Shown here: positions 2,276-39,398 of the stretch, piece by piece | Position numbering within the stretch: position 1 is the first letter of the stretch | Layout: the number at the start of each line of letters is the position of its first letter | DNA from: an uncultured Bacilli bacterium | GTDB taxonomy: Bacteria > Bacillota_I > Bacilli_A > RF39 > UBA660 | Reading direction: 5' to 3' | DNA length: 41,362 nt | NCBI GenBank assembly: GCA_944358435.1 | Contig: CALVRD010000003.1 | Span: 1 to 41,362, forward strand | Position numbers and translations under genes: made by a program | The notes under the pieces: model-generated | Database searches by the model: none | Seen by the model: only the letters and a program-made list of their open reading frames with translations | What the model was told of the DNA's origin: nothing

Positions 2276-2321
2276 GTTTATAAGATAATAAATAATTAAA
2301 AAGGGTGAGGGGTGTATTATT

Positions 2322-2996: not shown

Positions 2997-3050
2997 ATAT
3001 AAATATATACTATGTTTATGCATGGTATATTTTTGTTAATGAGGTGTTTT

Positions 3051-5294: not shown

Positions 5295-5305
5295 TATCTA
5301 GGAGG

Positions 5306-7385: not shown

Positions 7386-7400
7386 GAGAGTGTGATATAT

Positions 7401-8393: not shown

Positions 8394-8412
8394 TAAATCA
8401 AAGGAGAAAAAT

Positions 8413-9552: not shown

Positions 9553-10936
9553 AAATTTTATATATAATATTATTTATCAGCTCTTTATTTTTATTATACC
9601 GCTTATTTCAACACCTTATATATCTAGAGTATTGGGGGTAAATAATGTAGGTATATATTCTTATACATACTCAATTGTTTATTATTTTATGTTAGCATCT
9701 TTGCTAGGAATTAATAATTATGGAGCTAGATGTATTTCCAAAGATAGTAATAACAAAAATAAAATGTCCAAGAATTTTTTATCAATATATTTTCTTCAAT
9801 TGATGATGACATTGATAATGACAATAATATATTTTGGAATTGTTGTTTTTACAAATTATAATCACAAAGATATAATGATAATTCAATCTCTATTTTTATT
9901 ATCTACAGCAATAGATATTAATTGGCTTTTTTTTGGTATAGAAAAGTTCAAAATTACAATAAGTAGAAATATAATTATAAAGGTAATATCTTTGATTTTA
10001 ATATTTCTGTTCGTAAAAAATAATAATGATTTATGGAAGTATACTTTAATAATGAGTGGAAGTACTATTATAAGTCAAGCATATCTTTGGCTGTATATTA
10101 AAAAGTATATAGTATTTTGTAAAATAAGCATTAATGATATTATAAAAAATTTTAAACCTTGTTTAATTTTATTTGTTCCTGTTATAGCATATTCGATATA
10201 TAGGGTGATGGATAAAACTATGATTGGATTGCTTTCCAATACTATAGAACTAGGAAATTATGAAAGTGCAGAAAAAATAATTAATATACCAATTAGTTTT
10301 ATAACGGCTTTAGGTACAGTTATGATGCCACATATGTCGAAAACTTCACCTGAGGAATTTGATAAAAAAATAATCAGTACTTTTGAACTGTGTCTCTTTT
10401 TTATTTTGCCAATGGCATGTGGATTAGAAATAATAAGCAATGATTTTAGCACAATCTTTTTTGGTAAAGAATTTACTAAAGCTGGAGTTATAATAGAGCT
10501 TTTAGCACCTACCATAGTCTTTTCAGCAATTGCAAATGTAATAAGAACAAGTTATTTGATTCCCAAAGAGTTAGATAAATTATATGTAAAATCAACAATA
10601 TATGGTGCTATAGTCAATGTTATATTAAATTGTATTTTTATTAAAAGATATGGTGCATTAGGTGCATGTATTGGAACAATAGCGGCAGAATTTATAGTTA
10701 TGCTATATCAAATAATAAAAACTAGAACAAAAATTGATTATAAATATATTTTAGGAATTTTCTCAAAGTATTTAATTAAGGCATTGATTATGTCCATGGT
10801 TGTAATTATTATTGGAACGTTAATTGATAATATATGCTTAAAACTAATTGTTCAAATAATAGTGTCTATATTAATATATTCACTTTTATCTTATAGATAT
10901 ATATTATATGATTTTCTTAATATAAGAAACAATTAA
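9536..10936 (+). CDS. wzx: Wzx flippase
   Basis: PLI.TPY.SRVLG...G.Y start, DK.MIG, 12 or more TM segments. Confidence 0.92.
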   Translation: MKDVNKNFIYNIIYQLFIFIIPLISTPYISRVLGVNNVGIYSYTYSIVYYFMLASLLGINNYGARCISKDSNNKNKMSKNFLSIYFLQLMMTLIMTIIYFGIVVFTNYNHKDIMIIQSLFLLSTAIDINWLFFGIEKFKITISRNIIIKVISLILIFLFVKNNNDLWKYTLIMSGSTIISQAYLWLYIKKYIVFCKISINDIIKNFKPCLILFVPVIAYSIYRVMDKTMIGLLSNTIELGNYESAEKIINIPISFITALGTVMMPHMSKTSPEEFDKKIISTFELCLFFILPMACGLEIISNDFSTIFFGKEFTKAGVIIELLAPTIVFSAIANVIRTSYLIPKELDKLYVKSTIYGAIVNVILNCIFIKRYGALGACIGTIAAEFIVMLYQIIKTRTKIDYKYILGIFSKYLIKALIMSMVVIIIGTLIDNICLKLIVQIIVSILIYSLLSYRYILYDFLNIRNN

Positions 10937-10949
10937 AGGTGGTGAAAAA

Positions 10950-12005
10950 GTGAAAAGCTCAAGAATACATTTTATTGATGTTGCAAAAGCAATAGCTATA
11001 TTCTATATAGCACTAGGTCACGCTTTAGTTCATTCTCAGAATTCTACAATTATATTGCAATTTGTTTGTAGTTTCCATGTGGTTTTATTTTTTGTTTTAT
11101 CTGGATATACCTTTAGAATTAATAATGAAGAAACTTTTTTTAATTTTTTCAAAAATAAATTTATTAGAATAATGATTCCATATTTTTGCTGGGCAATACT
11201 TTTTTTAATACCTTATATGATATTTGGAAAGAGTGTTGGACAATCATTGGGAACAAATCAATCATTCGATTTATTAAACCAGATATTTAACATATTATAT
11301 GGAAATGGAAATGATGCTGCTCTAAAACAGAATAGTTCCCTATGGTTTTTACCTGCATTATTTACAATTGAAATATTTTATTATTTAGTTATTAAATATA
11401 CAAAAGGAAATATTAAAAAAGAATCATGGACAATAATAATATTATTTTGTTTAGGATTTATATCTAGTAAGTATTTAAAAATAATTTTACCAATAGGAAT
11501 AAATACTATGCTAAATGTTGGAATATTTTTTATAATTGGTTATTTATTAAAAGAGCGTGATTTGTTAAAAAAAATAAATGTCTTTGAAACAATAGTGTTG
11601 CTTTTAATAGGATTAGTTGCTTGTTATGAAAACAAAATACATTTATCATACATAGACTTTTATTATGGCAATTACATCTTTATGTTATTATCTGGTCTAT
11701 GTTTATCATTATTTACACTTAAGATTGCTGAACGTATTGGTAAAAATAAAGTATTAGAATATATAGGAAAAAATACTATGGGAATATTGATATTTCATAA
11801 AATTGTTATAATTATTTTTCAAACTAAATTAGGTGTGATTTCTAACTTACTATATAAGAGTAGTTGTAGTATAGAATTATTTATAGCTATAATATCTATA
11901 ATTATAAGTTTTTTTGTCTCACTTATTGGTACAGAAATCATCAGAAAAATTTGCCCTTTTTTAATAGGAGAAAAGCCTAAAAAAATAACAAATAAAATAA
12001 TTTAA
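10950..12005 (+). CDS. Acyltransferase family 3 (polysaccharide O-acetylase)
   Basis: R..FID.AK, GH, FH..LFF.LSGY, R.MIPY, LWFL..LF. Confidence 0.9.
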   Translation: MKSSRIHFIDVAKAIAIFYIALGHALVHSQNSTIILQFVCSFHVVLFFVLSGYTFRINNEETFFNFFKNKFIRIMIPYFCWAILFLIPYMIFGKSVGQSLGTNQSFDLLNQIFNILYGNGNDAALKQNSSLWFLPALFTIEIFYYLVIKYTKGNIKKESWTIIILFCLGFISSKYLKIILPIGINTMLNVGIFFIIGYLLKERDLLKKINVFETIVLLLIGLVACYENKIHLSYIDFYYGNYIFMLLSGLCLSLFTLKIAERIGKNKVLEYIGKNTMGILIFHKIVIIIFQTKLGVISNLLYKSSCSIELFIAIISIIISFFVSLIGTEIIRKICPFLIGEKPKKITNKII

Positions 12006-12043
12006 ATAAGTGAATTTTAATTATAAAAACTATTATATGAGGA

Positions 12044-13462
12044 GTGAAACTTATGAAAAAGAAAATTATTTGCAATATTATTAGTATTTCTTCAATAATT
12101 GCAATTATTGTACTATCTTGTTTACTATTTTCCATTAATATAATTTCATATAAATATTTATTGATTATATATAGTACTATATTTTTAATAAATATTATAG
12201 GGATTATTTTTACTAATATAAATATCAAAGGTTTAAGAACGCTTGGAATTATTATATTGATTATAATTATAATAGGAAGTTCTATTGGTAGTTATTATCT
12301 CATTACTACTAATAAATTTTTAGATAATTCTTTTAATAATAATGAAATTGTTTATACTAATACTTTTTATGTAGTTACAAATAATGATAATAATTATGAT
12401 AAGAGTAATATTAAAAATGAGATATCTTATTATAAAGATACTACTGATATCGATGATGCTTTAAACTATTTAAAGAAGAATTATAAAATTAAAGATAAAT
12501 TATATGAAGATATTGGAAATATGTTTTATGATCTAAAAGATAATAATATTAAGTTTATGTTAGTAGAAAAATCTTCTTATGATATAGTTTTTAATTTAGA
12601 TAGTAGTTTAAATAAAGATGATTTTAAAGTAATTGATCAGTTTGATATTAAAAAGAAGAAAGAGAATAAACCTTCTTCTATTAAAGATAGTTTTAATATT
12701 TATATTGGTGGTAATGATTTTACTAATAGTTTAATGGATTTTAATATGATTGTTTCTGTTAATATGAAGAAACATCAAATACTTTTAACAAGTATTCCTA
12801 GAGATTATTATGTAGAAGTAGCTGGGAAAGATGGCAGAAGAGATACTTTAAGTTATATGGGACCATATGGTATTGAAACTAGTGTTTCATCTTTAGAAAA
12901 TTTATTTGGTATTGAAATAGATTATTATGTAAAAGTTAATACTGAAAGTTTAGTTGAGCTAGTTGATAAGATTGGTGGTATAACATATTGTTCTGATATT
13001 GCATTTACAACTACCCATGCTCTTGTTTTAAATACATATAATGATTATGGTAAAAAATTATATGTAAAAAAAGGTTGCCAAGAGTTAAATGGTATTGAGA
13101 CTTTAACTGTAGCAAGGGAGAGAATGGCTTTTCCTGGAAGAGATAGAGTTAGACAAGAAAACTGTCGTAAAATTATTATTGCTATATTTGAAAAACTAAA
13201 AAGTACTAATACAATTTTAATATATAATCAAATGCTTGATTCATTAAGTAATATGTATGTTACTACTATTCCTAGAGAGATTATTAGTAATTTTGCTAAA
13301 GAGACATTAAATGGAGCTAAATGGCAAATTTTAGAACAATCAGTAAATGGTTCAGATGATATAGATTATGTTCATTTAACTAATTTAAAAGATTGGGTAA
13401 TGTATCCTGATATGAATACTGTAGTTAATGCCAAGGGCAAGATAGAAGAAGTTTTAAAATAA
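12044..13462 (+). CDS. LCP (LytR-CpsA-Psr) polysaccharide-to-wall ligase
   Basis: N-terminal TMs, LTSIPRD.YV, LVD.IGGI, ARER, GRD.VRQEN. Confidence 0.9.
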   Translation: MKLMKKKIICNIISISSIIAIIVLSCLLFSINIISYKYLLIIYSTIFLINIIGIIFTNINIKGLRTLGIIILIIIIIGSSIGSYYLITTNKFLDNSFNNNEIVYTNTFYVVTNNDNNYDKSNIKNEISYYKDTTDIDDALNYLKKNYKIKDKLYEDIGNMFYDLKDNNIKFMLVEKSSYDIVFNLDSSLNKDDFKVIDQFDIKKKKENKPSSIKDSFNIYIGGNDFTNSLMDFNMIVSVNMKKHQILLTSIPRDYYVEVAGKDGRRDTLSYMGPYGIETSVSSLENLFGIEIDYYVKVNTESLVELVDKIGGITYCSDIAFTTTHALVLNTYNDYGKKLYVKKGCQELNGIETLTVARERMAFPGRDRVRQENCRKIIIAIFEKLKSTNTILIYNQMLDSLSNMYVTTIPREIISNFAKETLNGAKWQILEQSVNGSDDIDYVHLTNLKDWVMYPDMNTVVNAKGKIEEVLK

Positions 13463-13521: not shown

Positions 13522-14757
13522 ATGTTGGAAATAATTGGTAATATATTTAATAATATTTATATTATGCTATTTATAGCTATATTATATTTTTTACTTTCTA
13601 AGTTAAATGTAGATAAGAGAAATATTGATAGGAAAATATCTATTTTGAATACTTTTTTGTTTATTTTAATGTTTACAGATGTAAATATGATAATAATATA
13701 TTTTTTGTATTTGGCAAGTACTTTTATGTATTTAGAAATTATAACTTTAGAGAAATTTGAAAAAGAATTAATAAAAGAACCTAAATTTTTACTATTAGAT
13801 TATTTATATAAGATGATTATAAATTATGGGGCTTTGTACATGTTTTTTAGTTATCTATTTTATAAATGTTTTAAATTACCTTTTATATTAAAATTATTAA
13901 TATCTTTTTATTTAGCGTTTAAAGGAATTATTGCTTCACTAAATAATGATTTTGAGACATATAGTTTTAATGAAATATATGAGAAAGTTAATTCAGTAAT
14001 GAAATTTAATATGTTTAATATTAATTATAAATTGGAAATGTTTTCTAATATGCTATTATATAAAGAAGATAAAAGTTATTTTATAAGAGAAAATAGCTAC
14101 AATTTACTGAGTTTAGAATTTTTATATTATAGATTAAAAAGATGTTATGATAATTATAAATATAATAGTAAATTGTCTAAATTTCGTAAAATTATATTAT
14201 TATTTAGAGATGTTTGTATACATACTTTTAGGTTTATTTATATAAATGTTAAGAAGTTATTTAAATATTTTTATTTTAAAATTAGAAATAAATTTTCTTT
14301 TAAGAAAAAATATATAAAATTAACAAGAGGGTATTCTACTATAGAAATGCAATTAATTAGAACTTTGGCAGTTAAAGATGGTTATAATAAATATCCAATT
14401 AAAAGGAAAATATTTGAATTAATTTATTCTTATATTTTCTTCAATTGCTTAAATGAATATTATAGATATATTGGGTATATGTCATATTTTGATGATAATT
14501 CTAAATTTAAATATTATTTAATTTATTTATATATATATTTTGCTCCTGTAAAGATTAATGGCAAGATGTATAATAATATTTTTGAATTATATAATAAAGA
14601 GTCATTATATGATATTTCATATGAAGAATTTTTTGTATGGACATTAGGTTTGTCTTTCAAACCTATAGATTATGATATTATTGGTTATAAAACTGTTGAA
14701 TGGGCAGGATTAGATAAAAAAGAACTTTTATTAATAGTAGATAAATTCCAAAATTAA
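13522..14757 (+). CDS. Membrane protein with a divergent GT51 (peptidoglycan transglycosylase)-like domain
   Basis: N-terminal TMs, then KEDKSYF (motif 1 ED), GYSTIEMQLIR (motif 2 GxSTxxxQ), RKIFE (motif 3 RKxxE), K.YLIYLY (motif 4-like). Confidence 0.6.
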   Translation: MLEIIGNIFNNIYIMLFIAILYFLLSKLNVDKRNIDRKISILNTFLFILMFTDVNMIIIYFLYLASTFMYLEIITLEKFEKELIKEPKFLLLDYLYKMIINYGALYMFFSYLFYKCFKLPFILKLLISFYLAFKGIIASLNNDFETYSFNEIYEKVNSVMKFNMFNINYKLEMFSNMLLYKEDKSYFIRENSYNLLSLEFLYYRLKRCYDNYKYNSKLSKFRKIILLFRDVCIHTFRFIYINVKKLFKYFYFKIRNKFSFKKKYIKLTRGYSTIEMQLIRTLAVKDGYNKYPIKRKIFELIYSYIFFNCLNEYYRYIGYMSYFDDNSKFKYYLIYLYIYFAPVKINGKMYNNIFELYNKESLYDISYEEFFVWTLGLSFKPIDYDIIGYKTVEWAGLDKKELLLIVDKFQN

Positions 14758-14828
14758 TTTTAATATAGTTATTTTAATGATGATATTGATATTTTAATAT
14801 ATATTCTTATTGAGACAAAATGGACGAA

Positions 14829-14945
14829 TCAGATGGTATAGATTATGTTTGTTTAACTAATTTAAAAGATTGGGTAATGTATCTTGATATGGATACTTTA
14901 GTTAATGCCAAAGGTAAGATAGAAAAAGTTTTAAAATAATTTCTT
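14829..14945 (+). repeat. Copy 2 of the direct repeat: orphan fragment of the LCP 3' end
   Basis: Encodes SDGIDYVCLTNLKDWVMYLDMDTLVNAKGKIEKVLK* versus SDDIDYVHLTNLKDWVMYPDMNTVVNAKGKIEEVLK*. Confidence 0.9.
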
Positions 14946-15047
14946 TTTTGGTTTTTTATATAATTCATATGATTAGTTATAGTTATTGTTAATATTTAGT
15001 ATTAAAATGTAACTTTTGATGGTATAAAAAATATAGATTAAGAATAA

Positions 15048-15532
15048 AATGAATATTATCTAGCAAGAGAATTACAAAAAGAGCTAGAGTATAAAGATTG
15101 GAGAAATTTTGAAAAAGTAAAAAATAAAACAATTATAGCAGCAAAAAAATAGTATCAAATCAGAAGAAAATTGGATTGTTAAAGTCAACACTCTAATTAA
15201 AATTATAAACTATCAAGATACATATGTTATTTAATTGTACAAAATGATGATCCAAGCAAAGAAGTTTTTGTATTAGGTTAAACATATTTTGCTATTCAAA
15301 CAAGAAATAACCGAAAAAGAATATGAATTGCTTACTGAAGATGAGAAGAGATTTTATTAAGGAAGTTTAACTAAAAAAGAAAATTTTTTGTTTAATCAAA
15401 CTTCAAAGAAAGCTAGAGTTAAAAATTTTGATAAATTTCATAATGCTGGATATAAGGATTCGTATAATAGAGAAACAGCTAATTTATTTTGCATTACACA
15501 AACTGAATCAAAGTTAAAAAGAGATAATATTT
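15048..15532 (+). pseudogene. dinD: Degraded DNA-damage-inducible protein D
   Basis: Fragments LARELQKELEYKDWRNFEKV, YKLSRYICYLIVQNDDPSKE..LG*TYFAIQTR, FDKFHNAGYK, TQTESKLKRDNI; in-frame stops (e.g. 15279-15281), frameshifts and deletions. Confidence 0.85.
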
Positions 15533-15914
15533 AAATTAAAGTAAATATAGATCTACTTTCTTTGTAAGACTAGTAAGTAGTATGATGGTATTTATGAGAA
15601 TGCTTATTGGTAATTTTATTTTTAATTCTATTTTGTTTTTTTGATGGCAAACTAGTTAGCGATGATTGAAACGGTATTAAAAAAGATTAATCTTAGAAGT
15701 TTGTATTTTTGATTAAAATATTAATTGAAATTTAATTTTTTGTTTAGGGAAAATGGTATTTGTACTGGTTTTCTTTTTTTATTTTGCAAATACTTGTTTT
15801 TGCATATAACAAATTTTTTTGATATTTTTAATTTGTTGTTATTTTTTTGGATTAATATACTATACTAAAAATAGAGTAGAGTATAGTTAATAAAAAGAAA
15901 AGAAAGGAGTAGAA

Positions 15915-16013
15915 ATGGCTGTAATTATATTAGGTAGTATATTATTAATAATTATTGTATTTTTGTTTTGTTCGTTGAGATTAGCAAGCTTATGTGATAG
16001 AAATGATGATTAA
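15915..16013 (+). CDS. Small 32-aa single-TM protein (absent from the ORF track)
   Basis: Strong SD AGAAAGGAG; MAVIILGSILLIIIVFLFCSLRLASLCDRNDD*; followed by a terminator. Confidence 0.65.
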   Translation: MAVIILGSILLIIIVFLFCSLRLASLCDRNDD

Positions 16014-16055
16014 TTTTAAAAATTAGAAAATATTAGTAAATTTTAATTAATAATT

Positions 16056-16081
16056 AGGAACGACTTAGGTCGTTTCTTTTT
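16056..16081 (+). terminator. Intrinsic terminator
   Basis: AGGAACGAC-ttag-GTCGTTTCT followed by a T tract. Confidence 0.7.
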
Positions 16082-16156
16082 GGAAATTTTTTGCTGATAT
16101 ATATTTTTTTATGTAGGTAAAAATATTAATGTAGATTGTTTAAGTGAGGTGATTTT

Positions 16157-19675: not shown

Positions 19676-19769
19676 TACTTCCATTTTTTCCTTTGATAAT
19701 TTCTTTGGCTATATTTACATTATATAAGAGTTGTAATATAATATTTACTGGTTTATGAGGAGTTTATTT

Positions 19770-20717
19770 ATGGAAAAATCTTATACAATTTTAACAAGTG
19801 ATTTAGTAGCTTTGGGTCACATACTTGACTATTTTGAAGAATTTGATAAGGAGTTTAGAGAAGCCTATTCTAAAGGATTTTTCTTTGGATTAAGACCATT
19901 TTATAAAAGAAATAAAGAAGTAGTTAATATAATTAATAATTATTCAGATATTAAAACTTTTTTAAACAAGACTAATTATGATTTTGATAACGAAGGAAAG
20001 CTTTGCCTAAGAGAGGGAATGAAGTTTTTTTATCAATATTTTTTAAGTCATAGAGATAGCATGGATCAAATGCTTGGAGTATTAGAAAAAATAAATGAAT
20101 TAGGATTTTCTTATATAGACTTTAATAGTGATGCAGATTTTACAAAGGAAGAATTTAATATATCTTCATTTTTTGGGCAAAATATTGAAATATCTTTTTT
20201 TGATAATATTGAAGTAATTCCAAGCTGCAGTAATGGTATTCATTATAGAACTAAGTCATCTAATTATAGAATGGATTTAAATGTTGGTTTTTCTGATGTT
20301 TTGGCTATTGGTAGTCAAATTACTCTTAATAGTTTATTGTTTGATCCAGAAAGATTGCCTGATAATCTAACTAAAGAAAGTACTTTTGGCAAGTTAGTGG
20401 AGTTAAAGAAAGAGCAAACTGATGTGACTTCTTATATTAGAGATTCAGTATGTCTAGGGGATAGTATTCAGGATTTAGATAAGCAGATACTTGCAACAAT
20501 TAGAACAGTTAATGGCTTAGAAAACTCTGAAAATAAACAGCAATTACTTGAGACTTTATTAAATATTAAAGCAAATGCTATTAAATTACAGTCTTTAAGT
20601 GCTGAATATGATAGATTTATTATGGGTAAAGATCCTTTAATAACTCCTGAAGTATTAGAAACTGAGAAGAAAGTTTATGCTAAAAGAAGAAAACGGATTG
20701 ATATTGATTGTTGTTAA
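19770..20717 (+). CDS. Hypothetical protein with C-terminal coiled coil
   Basis: Long ORF; SD GAGGAG before ATG 19770; no family recognised. Confidence 0.75.
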   Translation: MEKSYTILTSDLVALGHILDYFEEFDKEFREAYSKGFFFGLRPFYKRNKEVVNIINNYSDIKTFLNKTNYDFDNEGKLCLREGMKFFYQYFLSHRDSMDQMLGVLEKINELGFSYIDFNSDADFTKEEFNISSFFGQNIEISFFDNIEVIPSCSNGIHYRTKSSNYRMDLNVGFSDVLAIGSQITLNSLLFDPERLPDNLTKESTFGKLVELKKEQTDVTSYIRDSVCLGDSIQDLDKQILATIRTVNGLENSENKQQLLETLLNIKANAIKLQSLSAEYDRFIMGKDPLITPEVLETEKKVYAKRRKRIDIDCC

Positions 20718-20726
20718 TAGGATGAT

Positions 20727-20754
20727 AGAGTAGCATAATAATATGTTACTTTTT
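20727..20754 (+). terminator. Intrinsic terminator
   Basis: AGAGTAGCATA-ataa-TATGTTACTTT plus Ts. Confidence 0.65.
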
Positions 20755-20799
20755 ATTTACATTTTTAAAATGTTATATTAGTTATATTTGATAATTTTC

Positions 20800-20828
20800 T
20801 TTACTTTAAGCTTATTTTATGGTATAAT
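20800..20828 (+). promoter_or_regulatory. sigma-A promoter of the three-paralog operon
   Basis: TTTACT, 17-nt spacer, TATAAT with extended TG. Confidence 0.6.
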
Positions 20829-20855
20829 TTTGTCAATATTTTGGGGGTATTAATA

Positions 20856-22745
20856 ATGGTTGATGATATTTATATAAGTTTTTTAAAGGATTATTATGCT
20901 AAACATGGTACAATTAATGATATTTCTTATAATACGGTCGTTGAATATAGGGGTAGAAAGTTAAAAATTGGCTCTTTTTTGCGACGTATTAAATATTATC
21001 ATTGTGATTTTTTAGTGGGAAATGGAAATCAGGATGCTTTTTCTGACTTGTCTATTAAACGATATGAAGAATTAGATGAGTTAGGATTTATCTGGAATAG
21101 AAGTATATCTGATGATGATATAAATATCAGATTTTTACGTAGTTATTATGCTGTTCATGGTACAATTAATGATATTCCAACTACTGCTATAGTAGAGTTT
21201 GAAGGTAAAACTTTAAAAATTGGCTTTTTTCTTAGAAATATTAAACATGATTACAAAAATTATTTACAAGGTATTAGTATATATGGTTCTTTTAGTGAGA
21301 GATCTATTTATAGATATGTTGCATTGGATGAGATGAATTTTAATTGGGAAGACAAGCGTGAAGGGACAAAAGGAATAGAAGAAATTAGTGATGATATTTG
21401 TATGGAATGTTTAAAGAACTTCTATGATTTTTATGGTTCAATTGAAGAAATTGTTAGTGAAACTGCTGTTAAGTATAGAGGTAAAACATTAAATATTAAG
21501 AAATTCATTGATAGTGTTGTTAAAAAACATAATGCTTATGTTAATTGGGGAACTGTTACTAATGAAAGTCTTGGATATTTTACTTTTTTAACAAAAGCTG
21601 GTTTTGTTTGGCCAAATTTACTAGTTAGTGGTACTGTTATGGAAATTGCTAATGAAACAGGAGTAACAAATACTGAAGCTTATGAATGTTTAAGACGATT
21701 TGATGGAAATGTTGTCAAGACTAAAAAGATTTGCCAAACAAATAAAAAGTTGCGTGAGGAAAGTGATTTATATTTATTAGGTAATTATAGTATAGAGAGA
21801 CTTTTAAGGGAATTTGGTATTACTAAGGAAGCTCTTATTTCTAGTATTAATGGACTAAGATTAGATAAAACTGATAAAGATGTTTTATATGATCCGAAAT
21901 TTACTTTAAAAGATTTTTGTAAAATTAATGGATATAATTATGCAGTCATTGTTCATGCAGTAAAATTAAGAATTTATGGTTTATGTACTGATGATTTTGA
22001 ATCTCTAATTAATAGATGTCAAATTATTTTTAAAAATTATGGTATAATTAAGCCGGCTAATTGGATTTTTTATAAATATGGAAAAGAGAAATTCTTACGT
22101 AGGGTTCTAACAAAAATTGGAGCTGATCCAAACTATGTTTTACGTGATATGACTTGTCATGTATTTAATATGGAAACAGCTTTAAAAAGAGAAAGCTTTA
22201 GACTTAATTGTGATGATGCTTTTTCTTATTTAGAAGGTATTTATAGTGACTTAGTTAAATTTTATGAAACTGAAAATAGGAGTACAACTGATAAAGATGA
22301 ATTAGAGGAAAAAGTCTCTCTTTATACAGCTTTTTTAGCAGAAGAATATCAATTAACTGATAAAGAATTTGAAAATATTACTAAAGCTTTTAGTTGTTAT
22401 ACTTCTATGACTTATAATTTTCATTTATTTGATGTAGCTTTTGAACAATCTGTTTCGATTAAAATTGCTAAGATTATTAAATATCATTTTGATGATGATG
22501 ATTTAGAAGAAGCATATTTAATTCCATTAAGCTTTGATGATGGAAAATTAATTGGTGAAGATAATGAATTATATCAAAGACGGGTTATTATTAAGAATTT
22601 AACTGTTTGTTGGAATGATCTTAATGAAGATGAGAGACAGGAAAAAACACTTAACTATGGTTTGACTGAGAAAGAACTTAACTTTATTATGAATACGCGT
22701 AGTAAAATTGATATGGCGAAACAAAAAGTAAAAAGAAGACTTTAA
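20856..22745 (+). CDS. HA-like repeat protein A (3 repeats, HTH-like motifs, shared C-terminal domain)
   Basis: Repeat consensus D.Y..L..YY..HG.INDI......F.G..L.IG.F....Y..L..LGF.W resembles the helicase-associated domain; no helicase motifs. Confidence 0.75.
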   Translation: MVDDIYISFLKDYYAKHGTINDISYNTVVEYRGRKLKIGSFLRRIKYYHCDFLVGNGNQDAFSDLSIKRYEELDELGFIWNRSISDDDINIRFLRSYYAVHGTINDIPTTAIVEFEGKTLKIGFFLRNIKHDYKNYLQGISIYGSFSERSIYRYVALDEMNFNWEDKREGTKGIEEISDDICMECLKNFYDFYGSIEEIVSETAVKYRGKTLNIKKFIDSVVKKHNAYVNWGTVTNESLGYFTFLTKAGFVWPNLLVSGTVMEIANETGVTNTEAYECLRRFDGNVVKTKKICQTNKKLREESDLYLLGNYSIERLLREFGITKEALISSINGLRLDKTDKDVLYDPKFTLKDFCKINGYNYAVIVHAVKLRIYGLCTDDFESLINRCQIIFKNYGIIKPANWIFYKYGKEKFLRRVLTKIGADPNYVLRDMTCHVFNMETALKRESFRLNCDDAFSYLEGIYSDLVKFYETENRSTTDKDELEEKVSLYTAFLAEEYQLTDKEFENITKAFSCYTSMTYNFHLFDVAFEQSVSIKIAKIIKYHFDDDDLEEAYLIPLSFDDGKLIGEDNELYQRRVIIKNLTVCWNDLNEDERQEKTLNYGLTEKELNFIMNTRSKIDMAKQKVKRRL

Positions 22746-22754
22746 AAGGATTGG

Positions 22755-24407
22755 ATGATTATTATGGATGAAGAAATTTACATAAGATATTTACAAAATT
22801 ATTATGATGAGCATGGAACAATTAATGATATTGATTATAATACAGTTGTTGAATTTGAGGGTAATGCTTTAAATATTGGCTTATTTTTAGTGAAAAGTTG
22901 TCTTTTTCATCAATCATATGATGATGCTATTATAATATTTAGTGCTGTATCTTCCAAGTCATTAGCTATATATAATTCTTTAAGTAAATTTGATTTTGAT
23001 TGGGAACAACATGAAATGGCCATTTTAGAAGAAGATTGCATTCCTTATATTGAATATTTAAAAAGATACTATGAGAAACAAGGCTCTATTAATGATATTT
23101 CAGTTGAAAAAGTTTTTAAGCTTAATGGGGTTATTTTAAGTATTGGTAGATTTCTTTCAAGAATGAAAATTAGTTATAGAACATATAAGTCTGAAAATGA
23201 AGAAAAAAACATAAGTCCACTTATTCTTAAAATATGTCAGGACTTAGAAAAGTTAGAATTTGATAATTGGGATGGAATAATTACATTAAAAGATTTGGCT
23301 TTACAAAATGGGGTTAATATTACAACTTTATTTAAGATTAAAGAAAAGTGTAATGATAATGTAGAGAAAGCTTTAAAAATTGCTCTTTTAAGAAAAAAAT
23401 ATAATGATTTTCAGGATATTTCTAAACATGATGGTGGTAGTTTAAAAGAAACACTAGAATTATTTGACTTAGATATTGATACATTTATTAAATATTTAGA
23501 TAGAGATGTTTTAAAGACCAATAGTCATACTGGATTGATAGTTTTTGATAATGATATGACATTTAGTGATTTTTGCTTAAAAAATGGTTATAATGAACAG
23601 ATAATTATAAAAGCAATTAGATTAAAAAAGAAAAAGTTGTGTGATGAGTCATTTGAATCATTAATTAATAGATGTATTGTAGGATATAGTTCTAATGGAA
23701 GAAATAATCCAGCTAGTTGGATTTTTCAAAAGTATGGAAATGAGAAATTAGTAGGACAGATGTTAGCTTTGATGACATTTGATCCAAAAGCTTTTTGGTA
23801 TAATATGACTAAATATGAATTAACGATAGAAGAAGCTATTTGTTATGAAAGCTTTAAATGTAATAAAGGTACTAGGTTTGCATATTTAGATGCAATCTAT
23901 TATGAGATGGTTGATTTTTATCAAGGTCTTATTAGTAAAAATTTAAGTGAAGAAGAAATTAAAAATTTATTATTATCTAAAAGAAATAATTTAATTTCTG
24001 AGTATCAATTGACTAAAGAAGAAGAAAAAATAATTAGTAATTCTTTTGATCAATATTCTACAGCAATTTATCAATATCATTTATTTGATGTAGCATTTGA
24101 AAATGATGAAGAAAAAAGGATTAGTAAGATAATTAATTATAATTTTTCTGATGCTGATATTGAAGAAGCTTTCTTTTACCCTTTGAATTTTGGCAAGTGT
24201 AATTTAATTGGTAGAAATAGTAATTTATACCAACGTCGAATTGTTATGAGGAAATTAATAGCTTCTTTAAATGATTTATCAGATGCGGAATACGAAAGTA
24301 TGGTTCCTCTTTTAAAATTATCGGATGAAGAGGTTAGTTATGTAACTACAACTAGAAATAAAATTAATAGAGTTCAGGAAAAGGTATATCAATATAGAAG
24401 ACAATAA
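22755..24407 (+). CDS. HA-like repeat protein B (2 repeats)
   Basis: Same repeat and C-terminal motifs as its neighbours. Confidence 0.75.
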   Translation: MIIMDEEIYIRYLQNYYDEHGTINDIDYNTVVEFEGNALNIGLFLVKSCLFHQSYDDAIIIFSAVSSKSLAIYNSLSKFDFDWEQHEMAILEEDCIPYIEYLKRYYEKQGSINDISVEKVFKLNGVILSIGRFLSRMKISYRTYKSENEEKNISPLILKICQDLEKLEFDNWDGIITLKDLALQNGVNITTLFKIKEKCNDNVEKALKIALLRKKYNDFQDISKHDGGSLKETLELFDLDIDTFIKYLDRDVLKTNSHTGLIVFDNDMTFSDFCLKNGYNEQIIIKAIRLKKKKLCDESFESLINRCIVGYSSNGRNNPASWIFQKYGNEKLVGQMLALMTFDPKAFWYNMTKYELTIEEAICYESFKCNKGTRFAYLDAIYYEMVDFYQGLISKNLSEEEIKNLLLSKRNNLISEYQLTKEEEKIISNSFDQYSTAIYQYHLFDVAFENDEEKRISKIINYNFSDADIEEAFFYPLNFGKCNLIGRNSNLYQRRIVMRKLIASLNDLSDAEYESMVPLLKLSDEEVSYVTTTRNKINRVQEKVYQYRRQ

Positions 24408-24421
24408 TTATTAGGTGTTAT

Positions 24422-26614
24422 ATGGAAAATGATATTTATTTAGATTATTTTAGAAAACATTATAGTTTGTATGGTACGGTTAATAATATTGGGGATAATG
24501 ATGAAGTAGTTTTTTTAGGTAAAACTTTAAAAATTGGTTGGTTTAAAAGAATGATTCGAAATAAGCATAATTATTATAAAAGAGGTATTGATGCAAGAGG
24601 CTCTTGTACTACTTTAGCAATTAACAGATATAATGTTTTAGATGAATTAGGCTTTGAGTGGGAACCACAGAAGAAATTAACGGAAAATATATTAGGAAAT
24701 GATTTATATATTAAATATTTGCAAGATTATTATAGAGAACATGGTACTATTAATGATATTAATTTAACTTCAAGTGTTGAATATGGTGGAAAGACTTTAA
24801 AAATAGGATCTTTTATTAAAAATATTAGAAATTTGCATCGCTATTATGAACAAGGTCTTGATATTGAACAAAGTTTTAGTGAAATTTCTCTTACAAGATA
24901 TTCTGCCTTAGAAGAAATGAATTTTTCTTGGAATTTATTTTCGAAGAGTTTAAGTGATTTAGATGAAGATATTTATATTGCTTGTATAAAAGATTATTAT
25001 GAGAAGAATGGATCGCTTGCTGGACTAGATAGTGAGAGGATAATAAAGTTTAGAGGAGAAAAAGTAAATATTTCTTTATTTTTAAAAGGAATTAGACAAG
25101 TACATAGAAATTATTTAAATGGATTATGTAAATATGATGAGAAGACAATTAAACTTTATTTAGATAGAAAAGTAATTCTTGATAGAATGGGATTTAATTT
25201 TGATGAAAATAAAGATAAGGATAATTTTTCTTTTTTGGAAGAAGATTTATTTCTTGAGTATTTAAAAGAATATTATAGTAGAAATAATACAATTAATGAT
25301 ATTCCAACAACTGCTGTAGTTGTGTTTAGAGGGGAAACATTAAAAATAGGCGATTTTCTTAAAACTATGCGTTATAATCATAAATTTTATATCGATGGTA
25401 AAAGTAGGGCTGGAGCTGTTACTAGGGTTGCACTTAGAAGGTATGATGAACTTGAAAAATTAGGCTTTAACTGGATAAGTGAGAAGAAAGAAACTATTAC
25501 AAGTATTGCTAGAGATAATGGCTTTCCTGTATCTACAGTTCGCTCTTTAGTAAATAAATTTGATGGGGATATTGATAAGGCTATCAAAATTTTATTATTA
25601 AAAAAGCAAAGAGAAGAAAAAGTAAGAAAAAAGAAGAAAGATAAATATAGTTTAAATAATATTTTAGATTCTTTTGATGTAAATATGGAAACTTTTACTA
25701 GATATTTAGAAAGACCAGTAGTCAGAAAAGGTAAAACTAAAAATAAACCTATTATGGTTGATAAGAATATGAGTTTATGGGATTTCTGCGTAAGTAATGG
25801 TTATAATTATGATGTTGTGTCTCGAATAGTTAAGTTAAAGATGAAAGATTTATGTGATGAAGATTTAGAATCTTTAATTAATAGAAGTATTATTGAATAT
25901 CAAAATGTTGGACAAGGGAGAGTAGCAACATGGGTTTATAGTAAGTATGGGAATGAAATTTTAGTTAAGCATATGCTTATTTCGATGAATTTAGATTCTT
26001 CAGCGGTATTGAAAGATATGTCACAATATGTAATTAGTTTAGATGAAGCTATTGAAAGAGAAACTTTTAGGAAAAAAAATGGGCAAGAGTTTAGTTATTT
26101 ATGGGATATTTATCATGAGTTTGTTGAATTTTATAGAATGGTTGATACTAGCATTCAATATGATGAAGAAACAGCAAGTGCTTCTTTAGTTGAAAAAGCT
26201 CATAATCTGGTAGATGAATATCATTTAACTAATGAAGAATTTAATGGTATTATTGGGGCATTTAAGCATTATACAGATGCAATATATCAATATCATTTAT
26301 ATGAAGTTGGATTTGAAAAAGATGATAAAAAAAGATTAGAAAAAATAGTTAGTTATAAATTTGATAGTAAGGATATTGAGGAAGCTTTTTTCGTACCTCT
26401 TAGATTTGATCAGAAAGTTTTAATTGGTCGTGATAGTGAATTATATAAACGACGTCAATTAGTTAGAGATTTAACAATTTCTTGGAATGATTTAAGTGAT
26501 GAAGAAAAGACTTTGCAAATTAGTAATTTTGGACTTACTTCTTTAGAATTAGAATATATAAGTAGCACTAGTCAAATGATTGATACGGCAAAGAACAAAG
26601 TATTAGTAATTTAA
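24422..26614 (+). CDS. HA-like repeat protein C (4 repeats)
   Basis: Four repeats ending LGFEW, MNFSW, MGFNF, LGFNW; shared C-terminal domain. Confidence 0.75.
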   Translation: MENDIYLDYFRKHYSLYGTVNNIGDNDEVVFLGKTLKIGWFKRMIRNKHNYYKRGIDARGSCTTLAINRYNVLDELGFEWEPQKKLTENILGNDLYIKYLQDYYREHGTINDINLTSSVEYGGKTLKIGSFIKNIRNLHRYYEQGLDIEQSFSEISLTRYSALEEMNFSWNLFSKSLSDLDEDIYIACIKDYYEKNGSLAGLDSERIIKFRGEKVNISLFLKGIRQVHRNYLNGLCKYDEKTIKLYLDRKVILDRMGFNFDENKDKDNFSFLEEDLFLEYLKEYYSRNNTINDIPTTAVVVFRGETLKIGDFLKTMRYNHKFYIDGKSRAGAVTRVALRRYDELEKLGFNWISEKKETITSIARDNGFPVSTVRSLVNKFDGDIDKAIKILLLKKQREEKVRKKKKDKYSLNNILDSFDVNMETFTRYLERPVVRKGKTKNKPIMVDKNMSLWDFCVSNGYNYDVVSRIVKLKMKDLCDEDLESLINRSIIEYQNVGQGRVATWVYSKYGNEILVKHMLISMNLDSSAVLKDMSQYVISLDEAIERETFRKKNGQEFSYLWDIYHEFVEFYRMVDTSIQYDEETASASLVEKAHNLVDEYHLTNEEFNGIIGAFKHYTDAIYQYHLYEVGFEKDDKKRLEKIVSYKFDSKDIEEAFFVPLRFDQKVLIGRDSELYKRRQLVRDLTISWNDLSDEEKTLQISNFGLTSLELEYISSTSQMIDTAKNKVLVI

Positions 26615-26750
26615 ATTATTAGCCATCCTAACATTGCAAAACAAATGTTTGTCAATATAGAAAATTCTATATTTTAATTTTAAAAACTTAACGTTTCGGT
26701 TGTAAACTAGTGATTATAACTATTTATTAAGTATTACTTTCCTATTGTAT

Positions 26751-26796
26751 GAAAAAATCATAGTGTTTTTGTGATATGTAACGCTATGATTTTTTT
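26751..26796. terminator. Bidirectional terminator between convergent genes
   Basis: AAAAAATCATAGTGTT...AACGCTATGATTTTTT inverted repeat. Confidence 0.7.
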
Positions 26797-27375
26797 CTAT
26801 TGGGTATTTTTTATGTACTCTTCGTTAATTATTTCATAATTATAATTAGTTAATATATTTAATTTATCTTTTGGTATTAATACTTCATAAGTTATATTTT
26901 CTTGGTAGTCTTTATTTATAATTTGATAATCTTTTAGAAGATAATTAAGATTTTTTTGGTCACTATACATTATATTTATTTTGATTTTATATCCCTTTAT
27001 AACATTAATTAGATTAGTTTTTTTTATGACTTCTTTTACTGATTTGCTATAGGCTCTAACTAAACCACCTGTACCTAATTTTATACCACCAAAATATCTA
27101 ATGGTAATAGCTAAAATATTAATTAAATTTTCTTTTATTAAGATGTTTAACATTGGCAGACCAGCAGTTCCACTAGGTTCTCCATCATCACTTGACTTTT
27201 GATAATCTTCAGTAAGATAGGCATAACAATAATGATTAGCTGTTGGATAAGAGACTTTAATTTTATTTATTATTTCTTGAATATTAGAATTTGAATTTAT
27301 GGGTAATATAATAGTAATGAAACGTGAATTTTTTATAATAATTTCATTTTCTTTTACCTCGGTTATGGTTTTCAT
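26797..27375 (-). CDS. yigZ: YigZ/IMPACT family protein
   Basis: IKNSRF, ANH.CYAY, SDDGEPSGTAG.PM, RYFGGIKLG.GGLVRAY. Confidence 0.95.
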   Translation of the reverse strand: MKTITEVKENEIIIKNSRFITIILPINSNSNIQEIINKIKVSYPTANHYCYAYLTEDYQKSSDDGEPSGTAGLPMLNILIKENLINILAITIRYFGGIKLGTGGLVRAYSKSVKEVIKKTNLINVIKGYKIKINIMYSDQKNLNYLLKDYQIINKDYQENITYEVLIPKDKLNILTNYNYEIINEEYIKNTQ

Positions 27376-27457
27376 TTAATCACCTGAAATTATTATACAT
27401 TATCTTCTAGATTATTTCTAGGTGGTGTGTTATAATTCACATTAGGAGGATTAAATT

Positions 27458-34789: not shown

Positions 34790-34950
34790 AAAATCACCAC
34801 ATTAGTTATTTTATCAAAGTTATTGTTAAAAAACTAGTAATGTTTCATATTTACTAGTATATTTATCAATAAAATTCTCTTTATATGTGAAAATACATAT
34901 GTTTTTTTCTTGTATTTTTGTACTATAATATATATAGGTATGGTGATTAT

Positions 34951-35850
34951 ATGAAAATAGATGTTGCGATCAATGATTTTATAAATTATTGTCTATTTGA
35001 AAAAGGTCTTTCTGATAAAACAAAAGAGTCTTATTTTAATGATTTGACTGTTTATAGAGAGTTTTTAAATGATCATGGTATATTTGATGTTAGTGATATT
35101 AGAGATGATGATATAAAGGAATTTTTAAAGTCAAGGTATCAGAGTGAAAAGACAACTACTATTGCTCATAATTTAACTGTTATTAAAAATTTCCATGCTT
35201 ATTTGTTACGTGTTGGGGTTGTTAAGAGGGATGTATCACAATTTGTTGAAAGACCAAAATTAAGGAAGTCTCTTCCTAAAACATTAAGTGTTGAGGATAT
35301 TGATGTGTTATTAGATATTGAGTTAAAGACGGTATTTGACTATCGTAATAAAGCTATGTTAGAATTAATGTATGGAACTGGATTACGAGTTAGTGAGATA
35401 GTTAATCTTACTTTTAATGATATTGATATGACTAATTGTATTATTAGAATTATGGGTAAGGGTAGTAAAGAAAGAGAAGTTCCTTTAGGAGAATATTCTA
35501 TTTATTATTTAAAACTTTATTTAGATAAGAGAGAGGCTATGCTTAAAGAAAAATCTTGCGATAAATTGTTTTTAAATAATCATGGACAAGGAATGACTAG
35601 ACAGGGATTCTTTAAGAATTTGAAAATATTGCTAAAGGAAAAAGGATTAAATACTAATGTATCTCCACATACGTTAAGACATTCTTTTGCAACCCATTTA
35701 TTAAATCGTGGTGCTGATTTGCGTAGTATTCAAGAAATGCTAGGACATTCTGATATTGCAACTACTAAGATATATACTCATGTTAGTAATGAAAAAGTAA
35801 TTGATGATTATAATAAATATCATCCTCGTAGTCATAAAGGAGATGTATGA
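34951..35850 (+). CDS. xerD: Xer-type tyrosine recombinase (XerD/RipX)
   Basis: TGLRVSE, GKGSKER.VP, PHTLRHSFATHLL..GADLR.IQEMLGH.DI.TT.IYTHV, YHPR; precedes deoB as in Bacillus ripX-drm. Confidence 0.85.
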   Translation: MKIDVAINDFINYCLFEKGLSDKTKESYFNDLTVYREFLNDHGIFDVSDIRDDDIKEFLKSRYQSEKTTTIAHNLTVIKNFHAYLLRVGVVKRDVSQFVERPKLRKSLPKTLSVEDIDVLLDIELKTVFDYRNKAMLELMYGTGLRVSEIVNLTFNDIDMTNCIIRIMGKGSKEREVPLGEYSIYYLKLYLDKREAMLKEKSCDKLFLNNHGQGMTRQGFFKNLKILLKEKGLNTNVSPHTLRHSFATHLLNRGADLRSIQEMLGHSDIATTKIYTHVSNEKVIDDYNKYHPRSHKGDV

Positions 35851-37649: not shown

Positions 37650-38474
37650 TCATAATATTACTAATGGTTTATTAATAGAAGTTAACATAATATCAATTAT
37701 GGGAAGTTGATAATTAAGCAATTCTATATCTCTATTATCACTTGAAAACACCTCATTATAAACAATTTGCTGATTATTAAAGTAATCACTTAAACTACAA
37801 TCAATATAATCTAAATAAACACTAGGTTTAACAAGATTTCTAGAATACCAATATCTTTTTTTTGATTTTAAAGTAATTAATTCTTTTGTAGCATATTTAC
37901 TTATATAATTTGTAACTTTTTCTTTTGATTTAATTTTTGATATTGTAGTAAATCCTAATTTATAATTAACAAGATTATAAATTTGAGTATTATTAATAAG
38001 CATAGGTTTACCAGTTTTAGCATTATATGCTTTTTGAAACTTCCATTTAGGAACATTACCAACAAGACCGTGAAAATGAAGATGTCCACTTATTTTATGG
38101 AATTCAGGAACAAGAATATAATACATATTTGAATTTTGATGTTTTTGATTATCAATCCATTTTTTTAACAAATTAATAGCTTTATCATGAGTATAATCTT
38201 TAATATTAAAAGTTAAAGTAATAAAATAATCAAATTTATCTTTATTATTATAGGCTAAATCTATTATATTAGATTTAACTTTTTTTAAGTACTTCCTACT
38301 ACTCTCTTCTAATTCATCAGCAGAGTATGTTCCGTTATGTTGATTAAAATTTGTAAAACCCTTAAAACTAGTAAAACTTGTGCGTTTACATTTAACAAAA
38401 TTATCAGAATATGTAATAATTTTTGTATTATATAAAGCGACGTTTAAATGTTCATTATTAACAAAATATATAAT
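37650..38474 (-). CDS. Rolling-circle replication initiator (HUH endonuclease)
   Basis: Motif I FITLTF, motif II PE.H..G.LHFHGL, motif III YISKYATK; start uncertain (TTG 38489 or ATT 38474). Confidence 0.88.
   Translation of the reverse strand: MIYFVNNEHLNVALYNTKIITYSDNFVKCKRTSFTSFKGFTNFNQHNGTYSADELEESSRKYLKKVKSNIIDLAYNNKDKFDYFITLTFNIKDYTHDKAINLLKKWIDNQKHQNSNMYYILVPEFHKISGHLHFHGLVGNVPKWKFQKAYNAKTGKPMLINNTQIYNLVNYKLGFTTISKIKSKEKVTNYISKYATKELITLKSKKRYWYSRNLVKPSVYLDYIDCSLSDYFNNQQIVYNEVFSSDNRDIELLNYQLPIIDIMLTSINKPLVIL
37680..37707 (-). other. dif-type Xer recombination site (prophage attachment site)
   Basis: Minus strand ACTTCCCATAA-TTGATA-TTATGTTAACT, 11-6-11 layout closely matching Bacillus dif ACTTCCTAGAA-TATATA-TTATGTAAACT. 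Confidence 0.85.
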
Positions 38475-38498
38475 AAAAAACACCTCCAAAAATTCGGT

Positions 38499-38533
38499 TA
38501 AGTTGCCCTTTAGTCAAGTAAGGGGGCAACTTA
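38499..38533 (-). other. Putative double-strand origin hairpin
   Basis: TAAGTTGCCC / GGGCAACTTA stem; minus-strand loop contains TACTTGACTA. Confidence 0.6.
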
Positions 38534-38572
38534 TGAGATGTCATAGTAACACCCCCACACTGATTTTTCATA

Positions 38573-38616
38573 AAATTCGCCTTTCTTGTCGCTCTATAGT
38601 GCGACAAGGCGAATTT
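38573..38616 (-). terminator. GC-rich hairpin after the pI gene (terminator or ssDNA signal)
   Basis: AAATTCGCC-TTGTCGC-loop-GCGACAA-gaaa-GGCGAATTT. Confidence 0.55.
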
Positions 38617-39208: not shown

Positions 39209-39240
39209 AATATAATATCTCCTTTCTTACGCTTCGCTAT

Positions 39241-39359
39241 ATAGGGGGATACTTTTTATTTTTTTCTTTAAGAAACATATACTAACAAAGTGTATGGTCT
39301 CCACAGACTCATAAGCTCATAGTATAAAAAAACATTGAAAAAAATTAAAGTCCCCCTAT
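39241..39359 (-). other. Long imperfect rod-like hairpin (candidate single-strand origin or packaging signal)
   Basis: Nested pairs ATAGGGGGA/TCCCCCTAT, ATTTTTTTC/GAAAAAAAT, TATACTA/TAGTATA, TATG/CATA, GTCT/AGAC. Confidence 0.65.
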
Positions 39360-39398
39360 TACCCCCAACAAATTTTTAGTAAAGGCAAAGCCTTTGAA

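Follow-up and report, generated by a model that had tools for sequence, protein, structure and literature searches.

Three adjacent genes of an uncultured chicken-gut bacterium, termed A, B, and C, encode paralogous proteins in which helicase-associated (HA) domains occur without a helicase and are joined to a conserved module of ~375 aa, whose structure is predicted with confidence and for which no relative could be detected (Table 1). The window, i.e., the whole stretch of DNA that was analyzed, comprises 41,362 nt of contig CALVRD010000003.1 (GCA_944358435.1). The occurrence of HA arrays, their replacement by NUMOD1, HTH_23 or HTH_28-type arrays in relatives, the presence of a basic region with HTH-like units and the absence of any catalytic family point to a function of A, B, and C as non-enzymatic, multivalent DNA-binding proteins. 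For this reading, in which DNA binding is deduced from the module types, we consider the balance to be about even.

Gene organization of the locus

The first-pass annotation described three tightly packed, paralogous genes, and this description holds: the genes are co-oriented, the ORF coordinates leave intergenic gaps of only 9 and 14 nt and the proteins share 36-37% identity end to end, which is far above chance (BLAST: A vs. C, 36% over 643 columns, E 1e-130; B vs. C, 37% over 554 columns, E 1e-114). Faulty assembly does not account for the locus, as contigs of 11,272 and 13,680 nt from two other studies span positions 19700-27400 in full collinearity, with 52 and 92 differing letters, respectively. 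Gene A probably starts at the ATG at position 20856, which is preceded by a GGGGG ribosome-binding site at 20843-20847; read from this codon, its N-terminus MVDDIY matches MENDIY of protein C. For gene B, the ATG at 22764 may be the start instead.

Table 1. Coordinates of genes, protein regions, and candidate regulatory elements in the window.
Feature	Position	Strand	Details
Sigma-70-like promoter match	20800..20828	+	TTTACT-17 nt-TATAAT, TG extension (TGgTATAAT); 10/12 consensus positions; candidate
Gene A	20856..22745	+	629 aa from ATG 20856; ORF opens at TTG 20841 (634 aa)
Three HA repeats of A	20856..21620	+	~20856-21110, 21111-21362, 21384-21620; repeat HMM
C-terminal module of A	21633..22742	+	Family profile match 1.1e-143; three three-helix units and helical core
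Gene B	22755..24407	+	550 aa; alternative start ATG 22764
Two HA repeats of B	22761..23279	+	~22761-23018, 23025-23279; repeat HMM and alignment to repeats of C
C-terminal module of B	23283..24404	+	Family profile match 9.4e-148
Gene C	24422..26614	+	730 aa; AGGTG ribosome-binding site 24413-24417
Four HA repeats of C	24422..25489	+	~24422-24676, 24692-24934, 24959-25219, 25235-25489; repeat HMM, AF2, 2kta match
C-terminal module of C	25469..26611	+	AF2 pLDDT 88.4, pTM 0.84
Hairpin between A-run and U-run	26747..26800	.	-17.6 kcal/mol, z -6.67; 0/200 shuffles as stable

The sigma-70-like match upstream of gene A is listed as a candidate promoter only, because such matches are no more common in this region than in shuffled sequences (67 vs. 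61.2 +/- 9.5); another one sits just upstream of gene B, so that the single promoter assumed by the first-pass annotation is only putative. No operator-like repeat was detected in the promoter region, where one 9-nt imperfect inverted pair is the sole repeat. At the other end of the locus, the hairpin downstream of gene C is likely a two-way terminator that separates this gene from the convergent yigZ. This hairpin was overlooked by a consensus scan.

HA repeats and the C-terminal module

The N-terminal repeats reported by the first-pass annotation were recovered with an HMM derived from all nine of them, which places three repeats in A, two in B, and four in C at ~85 aa each, and the internal repeats are also visible as secondary BLAST alignments. 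Their proposed identity as HA domains (PF03457) is likewise upheld, via transitive homology through clearly matching relatives. PF03457 was matched at E<=1e-3 by 33 of 41 full-length family members (best 1.5e-17), and the scores reached 142.3 bits over five stretches in one relative (P0053) and 75.8 bits in the G109 homolog. The proteins of the window itself stay below the gathering score of 28.4 bits, with 24.7 bits for C (E 3e-5) and 16.1 bits for A (E 0.014), and protein B showed no Pfam match to this model. In a comparison of the predicted repeat with 48,161 PDB chains, the top rank was taken by 2kta (Z 5.0; next Z 4.0), an NMR structure of an HA domain and the sole HA structure solved; the superposition is weak in absolute terms (rmsd 5.7 A over 73 of 74 residues). 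A Foldseek search of the PDB with the N-terminal repeat model returned nothing at E<=1e-3.

In the AF2 model of the array of protein C, four units are predicted, each consisting of a helix, a beta-hairpin, and two further helices. This model combines a high pLDDT (89.1) with a low pTM (0.44), which fits HA modules that fold independently, like beads on a string. The arrays are not basic (pI of 6.0 in A, 4.6 in B, and 7.6 in C), and the full-length proteins range from acidic to neutral (pI 5.1-6.4); the acidity of the arrays in A and B is not expected of a simple DNA binder. Among 33 four-repeat proteins, the similarity of repeats at equal ordinal positions across proteins (0.38-0.44) barely exceeds that of other pairs (0.36-0.39) or of repeats within one protein (0.385). 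Consequently, neither concerted evolution nor a TALE-like hypervariable code is indicated.

As the first-pass annotation had stated, a helicase is missing: Pfam and NCBIfam detected no helicase family in A, B, or C, the DExD/H motif is absent from these proteins, and a Pfam scan of 35 relatives yielded no helicase domain. A single [AG]x4GK[ST] string, present in one of 46 close family members and located in HA repeat 3 of A, is taken to be a chance match. Catalytic families were not matched in A, B, or C in either Pfam or NCBIfam.

The shared C-terminal region, for which a length of ~300 aa had been given, is present in all three proteins but extends over about 370-380 aa. Within this region, the AF2 model of protein C shows three small three-helix (HTH/UBA-like) units that precede an all-alpha core of ~230 aa. 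The part bearing the HTH-like units has a basic pI (8.3-9.5) and the core is acidic. The family proved to be undescribed, as the earlier annotation had proposed: it has no name beyond “hypothetical protein” in any source and the C-terminal module has no family model, with no family found in Pfam, NCBIfam, PADLOC, or PHROG and only weak single-member matches in PHROGs. Foldseek searches of the PDB and BFVD with the C-terminal model gave no match at E<=1e-3. A wide structural search with the whole model reached a best Z of 6.3, confined to a 47-residue UBA-like piece, and barely probed the core (module residues ~150-381); for the first three-helix unit, no HTH gave a better match than the UBA and EF-Ts N-terminal domains (Z 6.3), which are protein binders. 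Alignment profiles searched against PDB sequences produced a best E of 0.018 (a GTPase helix) for one alignment and nothing at E<=1 for a second one. In the ESM Atlas, the best score (0.84) belonged to a “hypothetical protein,” accompanied by weak phage HTH leads, and the core alone had no usable match.

All HTH matches of the window proteins are sub-threshold (HTH_10 at 0.079, TIGR04111 at 3.5e-4), and the three-helix units matched HTH_29 in four and HTH_35 in three of 15 cases at E<=1. Glu, Lys, and Arg make up most of the polar residues that are conserved in the core, and a set of His, Asp, Ser, or Cys was not found among its conserved residues. The core of ~230 aa is without a recognizable relative or catalytic signature in sequence searches and in fold searches of the whole module, although it may yet prove to have a known fold. 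Among the relatives scanned with Pfam (35 of the 150 listed), P0098, P0109, P0125, and P0160 keep the full C-terminal module and carry NUMOD1, HTH_23 or HTH_28-type arrays in place of HA.

Distribution, chromosomal context, and alternative interpretations

With 199 representatives among 1.84 billion, the family is rare. It was found solely within the GTDB family of the window, in a minority of its genomes, and its hosts are small-genome, low-GC gut Bacilli. In a quick tree, A, B, and C fall in three different clades (SH-aLRT 90, 81, and 91); a tree grouping them together was not rejected by the AU test (p 0.357). Close relatives are always located at one chromosomal site adjoining the convergent yigZ, and their upstream neighbor, where this flank is covered, is tdk, a GNAT gene, or sigE. 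In nine of nine close relatives, a single gene occupies this site. Three parts are therefore not obligatory, and the three-part “system” proposed by the first-pass annotation is not borne out.

Its surroundings bear on two of the possible functions. The genes A, B, and C are situated 1.8 kb downstream of spoIIGA-sigE and, in two other genomes (G009 and G015), the single family gene directly follows sigE, as might be expected of a RacA-like chromosome factor that is tied to sporulation or the cell cycle and expressed with the spoIIGA-sigE cluster. We regard such a role as very improbable, as 11 of 14 congeners keep spoIVB-spoIIGA-sigE with an empty site and nothing before yigZ (10 with tdk, one without), the family gene of L019 follows orf104-tdk at a locus where spoIIGA and sigE are absent, distant members are found near pflB/pflA or nusG, and the candidate promoter is sigma-A-like. 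The defense sensor envisaged earlier, i.e., a protein that senses phages or mobile elements, would agree with the patchy presence among close relatives, their fast divergence (30-45% identity where sigE shows 83-93%), the multi-copy arrays with repeat numbers of one to seven per protein, and the fairly relaxed polymorphism (18 non-synonymous and 16 synonymous changes among the 34 variants listed). The chances of this explanation are nevertheless slim: PADLOC-DB 2.0 matched none of six proteins (A, B, C, orf320, and the G009 and G015 orthologs), an effector domain is absent, and no relatives of the C-terminal module were detected in phage, plasmid, and IMG/VR collections. Moreover, the chromosomal site is fixed, the flanking genes are housekeeping genes in 9/9 close and 3/3 distant loci, and none of these 12 loci contains flanking defense or mobile genes. 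As an accessory gene, the family gene occupies a fixed position on the chromosome, outside defense islands and mobile elements, and its absence from most relatives argues against a core chromosome function.

Two further interpretations concern the proteins themselves and are both unlikely, if less so than the preceding ones. The core could be an unrecognized catalytic domain, such as a nuclease, recombinase, or modifying enzyme, that is delivered to DNA by the HA or HTH arrays. This combination of array and effector is known from NUMOD1 homing endonucleases and from PLD nuclease-HA fusions (PMC12191111), it is the conserved core that defines the family, and several Glu, Tyr, and Arg residues of the core are near-invariant among 131 sequences (e.g., E606, 97%; Y645, 96%; E709, 91%). 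However, the fold is all-alpha and lacks a His/Asp/Ser motif, neither families nor structures of nucleases, recombinases, or transferases were matched, and no immunity or methylase partner is encoded in the neighborhood. Alternatively, the proteins could be scaffolds whose acidic HA arrays and UBA-like units bind proteins and not nucleic acid. The acidity of the core and, in A and B, of the HA array, the UBA and EF-Ts N-terminal domains as best-aligned structures of the first three-helix unit, and UBA-like Pfam matches in the distant relative P0098 are in line with this idea, to which we give a similarly low likelihood, as HA, NUMOD1, and HTH_23-type units all belong to DNA-associated module families and the units swapped into the N-termini of relatives are classical DNA-binding HTHs. 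Counted against the DNA-binding reading were the non-basic arrays, the sub-cut-off PF03457 scores, the weak 2kta match, the UBA/EF-Ts likeness, and the absence from most relatives.

Comparison with known HA proteins and possible role

HA domains are widespread and poorly understood, and have almost always been described as appendages of helicases, transposition proteins, or nucleases. The HA domain is referred to as a DNA-binding module in PMC12191111 (citing Mills 2013), and HA arrays are reported for TtrA, a telomere protein of Streptomyces, and for TniQ target selectors in 10.1101/2024.11.13.623437. SF2 helicases with C-terminal HA arrays and TtrA share the tandem HA module with A, B, and C, along with a presumed DNA-contacting role. 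A, B, and C, however, carry the array at the N-terminus and lack a helicase or any other motor. TniQ-HA proteins of Tn7-like elements and PLD nuclease-HA fusions resemble A, B, and C in that the array is joined to a non-helicase partner. Here, the partner is neither TniQ nor a nuclease and no transposition or restriction genes are located nearby. The combination of three three-helix units with a novel core of ~230 aa is absent from the HA proteins of the literature consulted. Multi-HTH arrays of the NUMOD1, I-TevI, and I-HmuI kind are carried by distant members of the C-terminal family in place of HA; unlike homing endonucleases, the proteins of the window contain no GIY-YIG, HNH, or LAGLIDADG domain, and their HTH matches remain below the cut-offs.

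If A, B, and C are non-enzymatic DNA-binding proteins, DNA contacts would be made by the variable N-terminal array together with the HTH-like units, while the conserved C-terminal core would provide a shared function, e.g., self-assembly or the recruitment of a partner, and the three copies would recognize different sites. We infer both this division of labor and the differing specificities of the paralogs. A more far-reaching version, which we put forward only tentatively and consider rather less probable, holds that the C-terminal module is a new hub domain carrying interchangeable DNA-reading arrays (HA or NUMOD1/HTH, 1 to 7+ units), so that adjacent, old paralogs would make up a small system specific to the family, in which each would read its own chromosomal sites and all would share an output through the hub by assembly, bridging, or recruitment.

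The interest of the family is moderate, as it is small and taxonomically narrow with no sign yet of an unusual mechanism. The exchange of HA for HTH arrays on the same module makes it a clean test case for what HA arrays recognize and for what the new domain does. Its carriers are gut bacteria whose genomes are reduced and encode few regulators. If the hub reading is true, these organisms would possess a lineage-restricted chromatin or regulatory system centered on a new fold.

Three paralogous genes with helicase-associated repeats

The window stems from a genome of 1.24 Mb (96% complete, about 25% G+C), whose host is a member of the Bacilli with sporulation genes. At least half of its sampled words are present in 13 sequencing runs besides the possible source run, the majority carrying the label chicken gut metagenome; matching rows number 20, from 11 studies, and the whole of 19700-27400 is collinear in two independent assemblies of other studies.

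The first-pass annotation had claimed three paralogous genes with helicase-associated (HA) repeats, separated by 9 and 14 bp, and this description was borne out. The coordinates give gaps of 9 and 14 nt, proteins A and C share 36% identity over 643 columns (E 1e-130), and B and C share 37% over 554 columns (E 1e-114). An HMM built from the nine repeats of these proteins assigned three to A, two to B and four to C, and it detected two to seven repeats (mode four) in each of 46/46 close family proteins. A Shine-Dalgarno-like sequence is present ahead of each open reading frame (ORF), and A probably starts at the ATG at 20856, which is preceded by GGGGG. A promoter-like site lies upstream of A (see table); because such matches are equally common in shuffled sequence (67 in the region vs 61.2 +/- 9.5), a single promoter for A-B-C is still a guess. 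Between C and the convergent yigZ, a hairpin of -17.6 kcal/mol (z -6.67) is flanked by A- and U-runs.

Features of the window
Feature	Position	Strand	Basis or remark
Capsule/exopolysaccharide locus	166-13462	+	ordinary
Hydrophobic 411-aa ORF	13522-14757		no Pfam family
Region of 1.4 kb	14758-16156		no ORF >=70 aa, tRNA or Rfam match
Promoter-like site of the 320-aa ORF	19714-19742		strong, 11/12 positions
320-aa ORF	19755-20717	+	between tdk and gene A
Promoter-like TTTACT-17-TGgTATAAT	20800-20828		upstream of A; consensus match
ORF A	20841-22745	+	ORF calling
ORF B	22755-24407	+	ORF calling
ORF C	24422-26614	+	ORF calling
XerC/D-type tyrosine recombinase gene	34918-35850	+	1.8 kb from the phage-like module
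Filamentous-phage-like module	37650-41154	-	
Replication protein in this module	37650-38489		PF23343 REP_ORF2-G2P
Assembly ATPase in this module	38615-39208		Zot family
Three ORFs in this module	39399-41154		no Pfam family

The assignment of the repeats to HA proved correct. In the window, Pfam PF03457 scores slightly below its cut-off of 28.4 bits for C (24.7) and A (16.1) and does not match B; among full-length family members, 33 of 41 match it at E<=1e-3 (best 1.5e-17), with relatives scoring as high as 142 and 76 bits. In the AlphaFold2 model of residues 1-350 of C (pLDDT 89.1, pTM only 0.44), the array consists of four separately folded units, each made of a helix, a beta-hairpin and two further helices. 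The best match of the predicted repeat among 48,161 PDB representatives was 2kta (Z 5.0, runner-up 4.0; rmsd 5.7 A over 73/74 residues), the NMR structure of a Bacteroides vulgatus HA domain; a Foldseek search with the array model returned no match. No concerted evolution was seen among the repeats. In the parts of the literature consulted, HA is described as a DNA-binding module (PMC12191111) and reported on helicases, on PLD nucleases (PMC12191111), and also on TniQ and in TtrA, a telomere protein of Streptomyces (10.1101/2024.11.13.623437).

A novel C-terminal module

A shared C-terminal region had also been proposed; the sharing stands, while its size of about 300 aa was an underestimate, as 370-380 residues are alignable across 15 locus-derived sequences. 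The AlphaFold2 model (pLDDT 88.4, pTM 0.84) is all-alpha: after three small three-helix units come about twelve helices and a single short hairpin. When 1.84 billion representatives were searched exhaustively with the profile, 199 proteins matched at E<=1e-3, 142 of them at E<=1e-10 and 66 at E<=1e-30, with the module at or near the C-terminus wherever there is additional sequence. Structure searches were run with the whole module, the core included rather than separate: neither Foldseek against the PDB nor BFVD gave a significant match, and the best hit of VIA wide against the PDB (Z 6.3, not significant) was UBA-like and confined to the first 48 residues. PDB sequence profile searches, PHROGs, PADLOC and ESM Atlas likewise yielded no significant match, and Pfam gave only weak HTH_29 (4/15) and HTH_35 (3/15) matches. 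Set apart by these whole-module searches, the module is novel, and the helicase-free HA-array family that carries it is previously undescribed; no source names a member beyond “hypothetical protein.”

A Pfam scan of 35 of the 150 listed relatives found HA arrays in the closer ones. Four more distant relatives (P0098, P0109, P0125, P0160) match the whole C-terminal module, yet NUMOD1/HTH_23/HTH_28/HTH_36-type arrays replace HA. Enzyme domains, including those of helicases and nucleases, were absent from all 35. Two of the weakest matches (P0168, P0186) have only the small HTH-like units in common with the family and may not be true members.

Distribution, neighbourhood and history

Protein C matched two of 20 congeners and none of 20 other relatives. 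The C-terminal profile matched two of 80 genomes from other genera of the GTDB family (one marginal, E 1.6e-4), 4/49 genomes of this family in a class-wide sample, 0/350 from 29 other families, and 0/399 other genomes phylum-wide.

Upstream of A lie spoIVB, spoIIGA, sigE, tdk and an orphan 320-aa ORF; downstream of C follow yigZ, an AI-2E transporter, kinases, alaS and holA. The idea of a three-part system found no support, since nine of ten relatives' loci have one family gene, directly ahead of convergent yigZ; the tenth (L023) is a distant member sited elsewhere. Directly upstream of the family gene is tdk (L011, L019), tdk followed by a GNAT gene (L012-L014), sigE (L008, L015) or a contig end (L016, L017). 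Around yigZ in 14 congeners, 11 have no ORF >=90 aa before it (tdk abuts it in ten, sigE in one), G003 has an unrelated 212-aa ORF, and two are rearranged. Other distant members adjoin pflB/pflA (G109, G455) or lie near nusG, SpoU and CutA (G277).

The junction upstream of yigZ, normally after tdk, is a variable spot in the window, L012-L014, L037 and L039, and G003 and G002 carry extra ORFs of 327 and 239 aa between sigE and tdk. The 320-aa ORF belongs to no Pfam or PADLOC family, has only four homologs among 5.8 billion clusters and is missing at the other loci with the HA gene. Elsewhere, the phage-like module is possibly an integrated inovirus; a gene for a XerC/D-type tyrosine recombinase is 1.8 kb away, and the GC skew changes sign at the module. 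The ORF-free 1.4 kb is flanked by spoIVB and the 411-aa ORF. The capsule locus encodes Wzz, a tyrosine-kinase-like ATPase, CpsB phosphatase and a priming sugar transferase, along with GT4 and GT2 glycosyltransferases, a pyruvyl transferase, a flippase, an acyltransferase and an LCP protein.

The family gene evolves fast, as its product is 30-42% identical to those of the window (reaching 47% over the C-terminal module), compared with 83-93% for sigE and 55-68% for yigZ. Within the three genes lie 34 of the 40 variant places listed (76 more exist besides), 18 non-synonymous and 16 synonymous (13 vs 9 in B); this partial sample suggests relaxed but real constraint. Four match groups with identical longest-contig values (15191, 19853, 32068, 26900) suggest that two or three copies also lie together on further contigs. 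A quick IQ-TREE was built from 64 C-terminal modules; in it, copies from these putative multi-copy contigs pair across contigs (clades at 98-100 SH-aLRT), and A, B and C fall into three different clades (90, 81 and 91). Judged from these sequences, paralogy in the family is likely old, and that of A, B and C may be; a single A-B-C clade was not rejected, however (AU test, p 0.357), and A and B form long branches.

Possible functions

Across 131 sequences, Glu, Lys, Arg and Tyr make up most of the module's conserved polar residues, among them E606 (97%), Y645 (96%) and E709 (91%) of the core, and a His, Asp, Ser or Cys set is absent. That the arrays direct a novel enzyme to its target is improbable. 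The small-unit region is basic (pI 8.3-9.5), the core acidic (about 5), and the arrays have pI values of 6.0 (A), 4.6 (B) and 7.6 (C). The acidic arrays of A and B and the acidic core would suit protein-binding scaffolds, a reading that is nevertheless as doubtful as the enzyme. Still less probable is a sporulation-linked factor, as the spo genes of the window would invite: the link to this cluster is not conserved, since the more distant relative L019 (metagenome contig, 4599-8736) reads orf104-tdk-family gene (866 aa)-yigZ, and spoIIGA and sigE are absent between orf104 and tdk. A role as defence sensor, raised by the first-pass annotation, was not supported and ranks just as low, with no PADLOC match and no integrase, transposase or defence gene adjoining the examined loci, close or distant.

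DNA binding is favoured because all recognisable parts are small nucleic-acid-associated modules, because relatives can exchange the arrays yet retain the C-terminal module, and because no enzyme or defence signature was seen. The proteins would accordingly be read, with about an even chance, as non-enzymatic multivalent DNA binders, in which the conserved C-terminal module would provide a common function.
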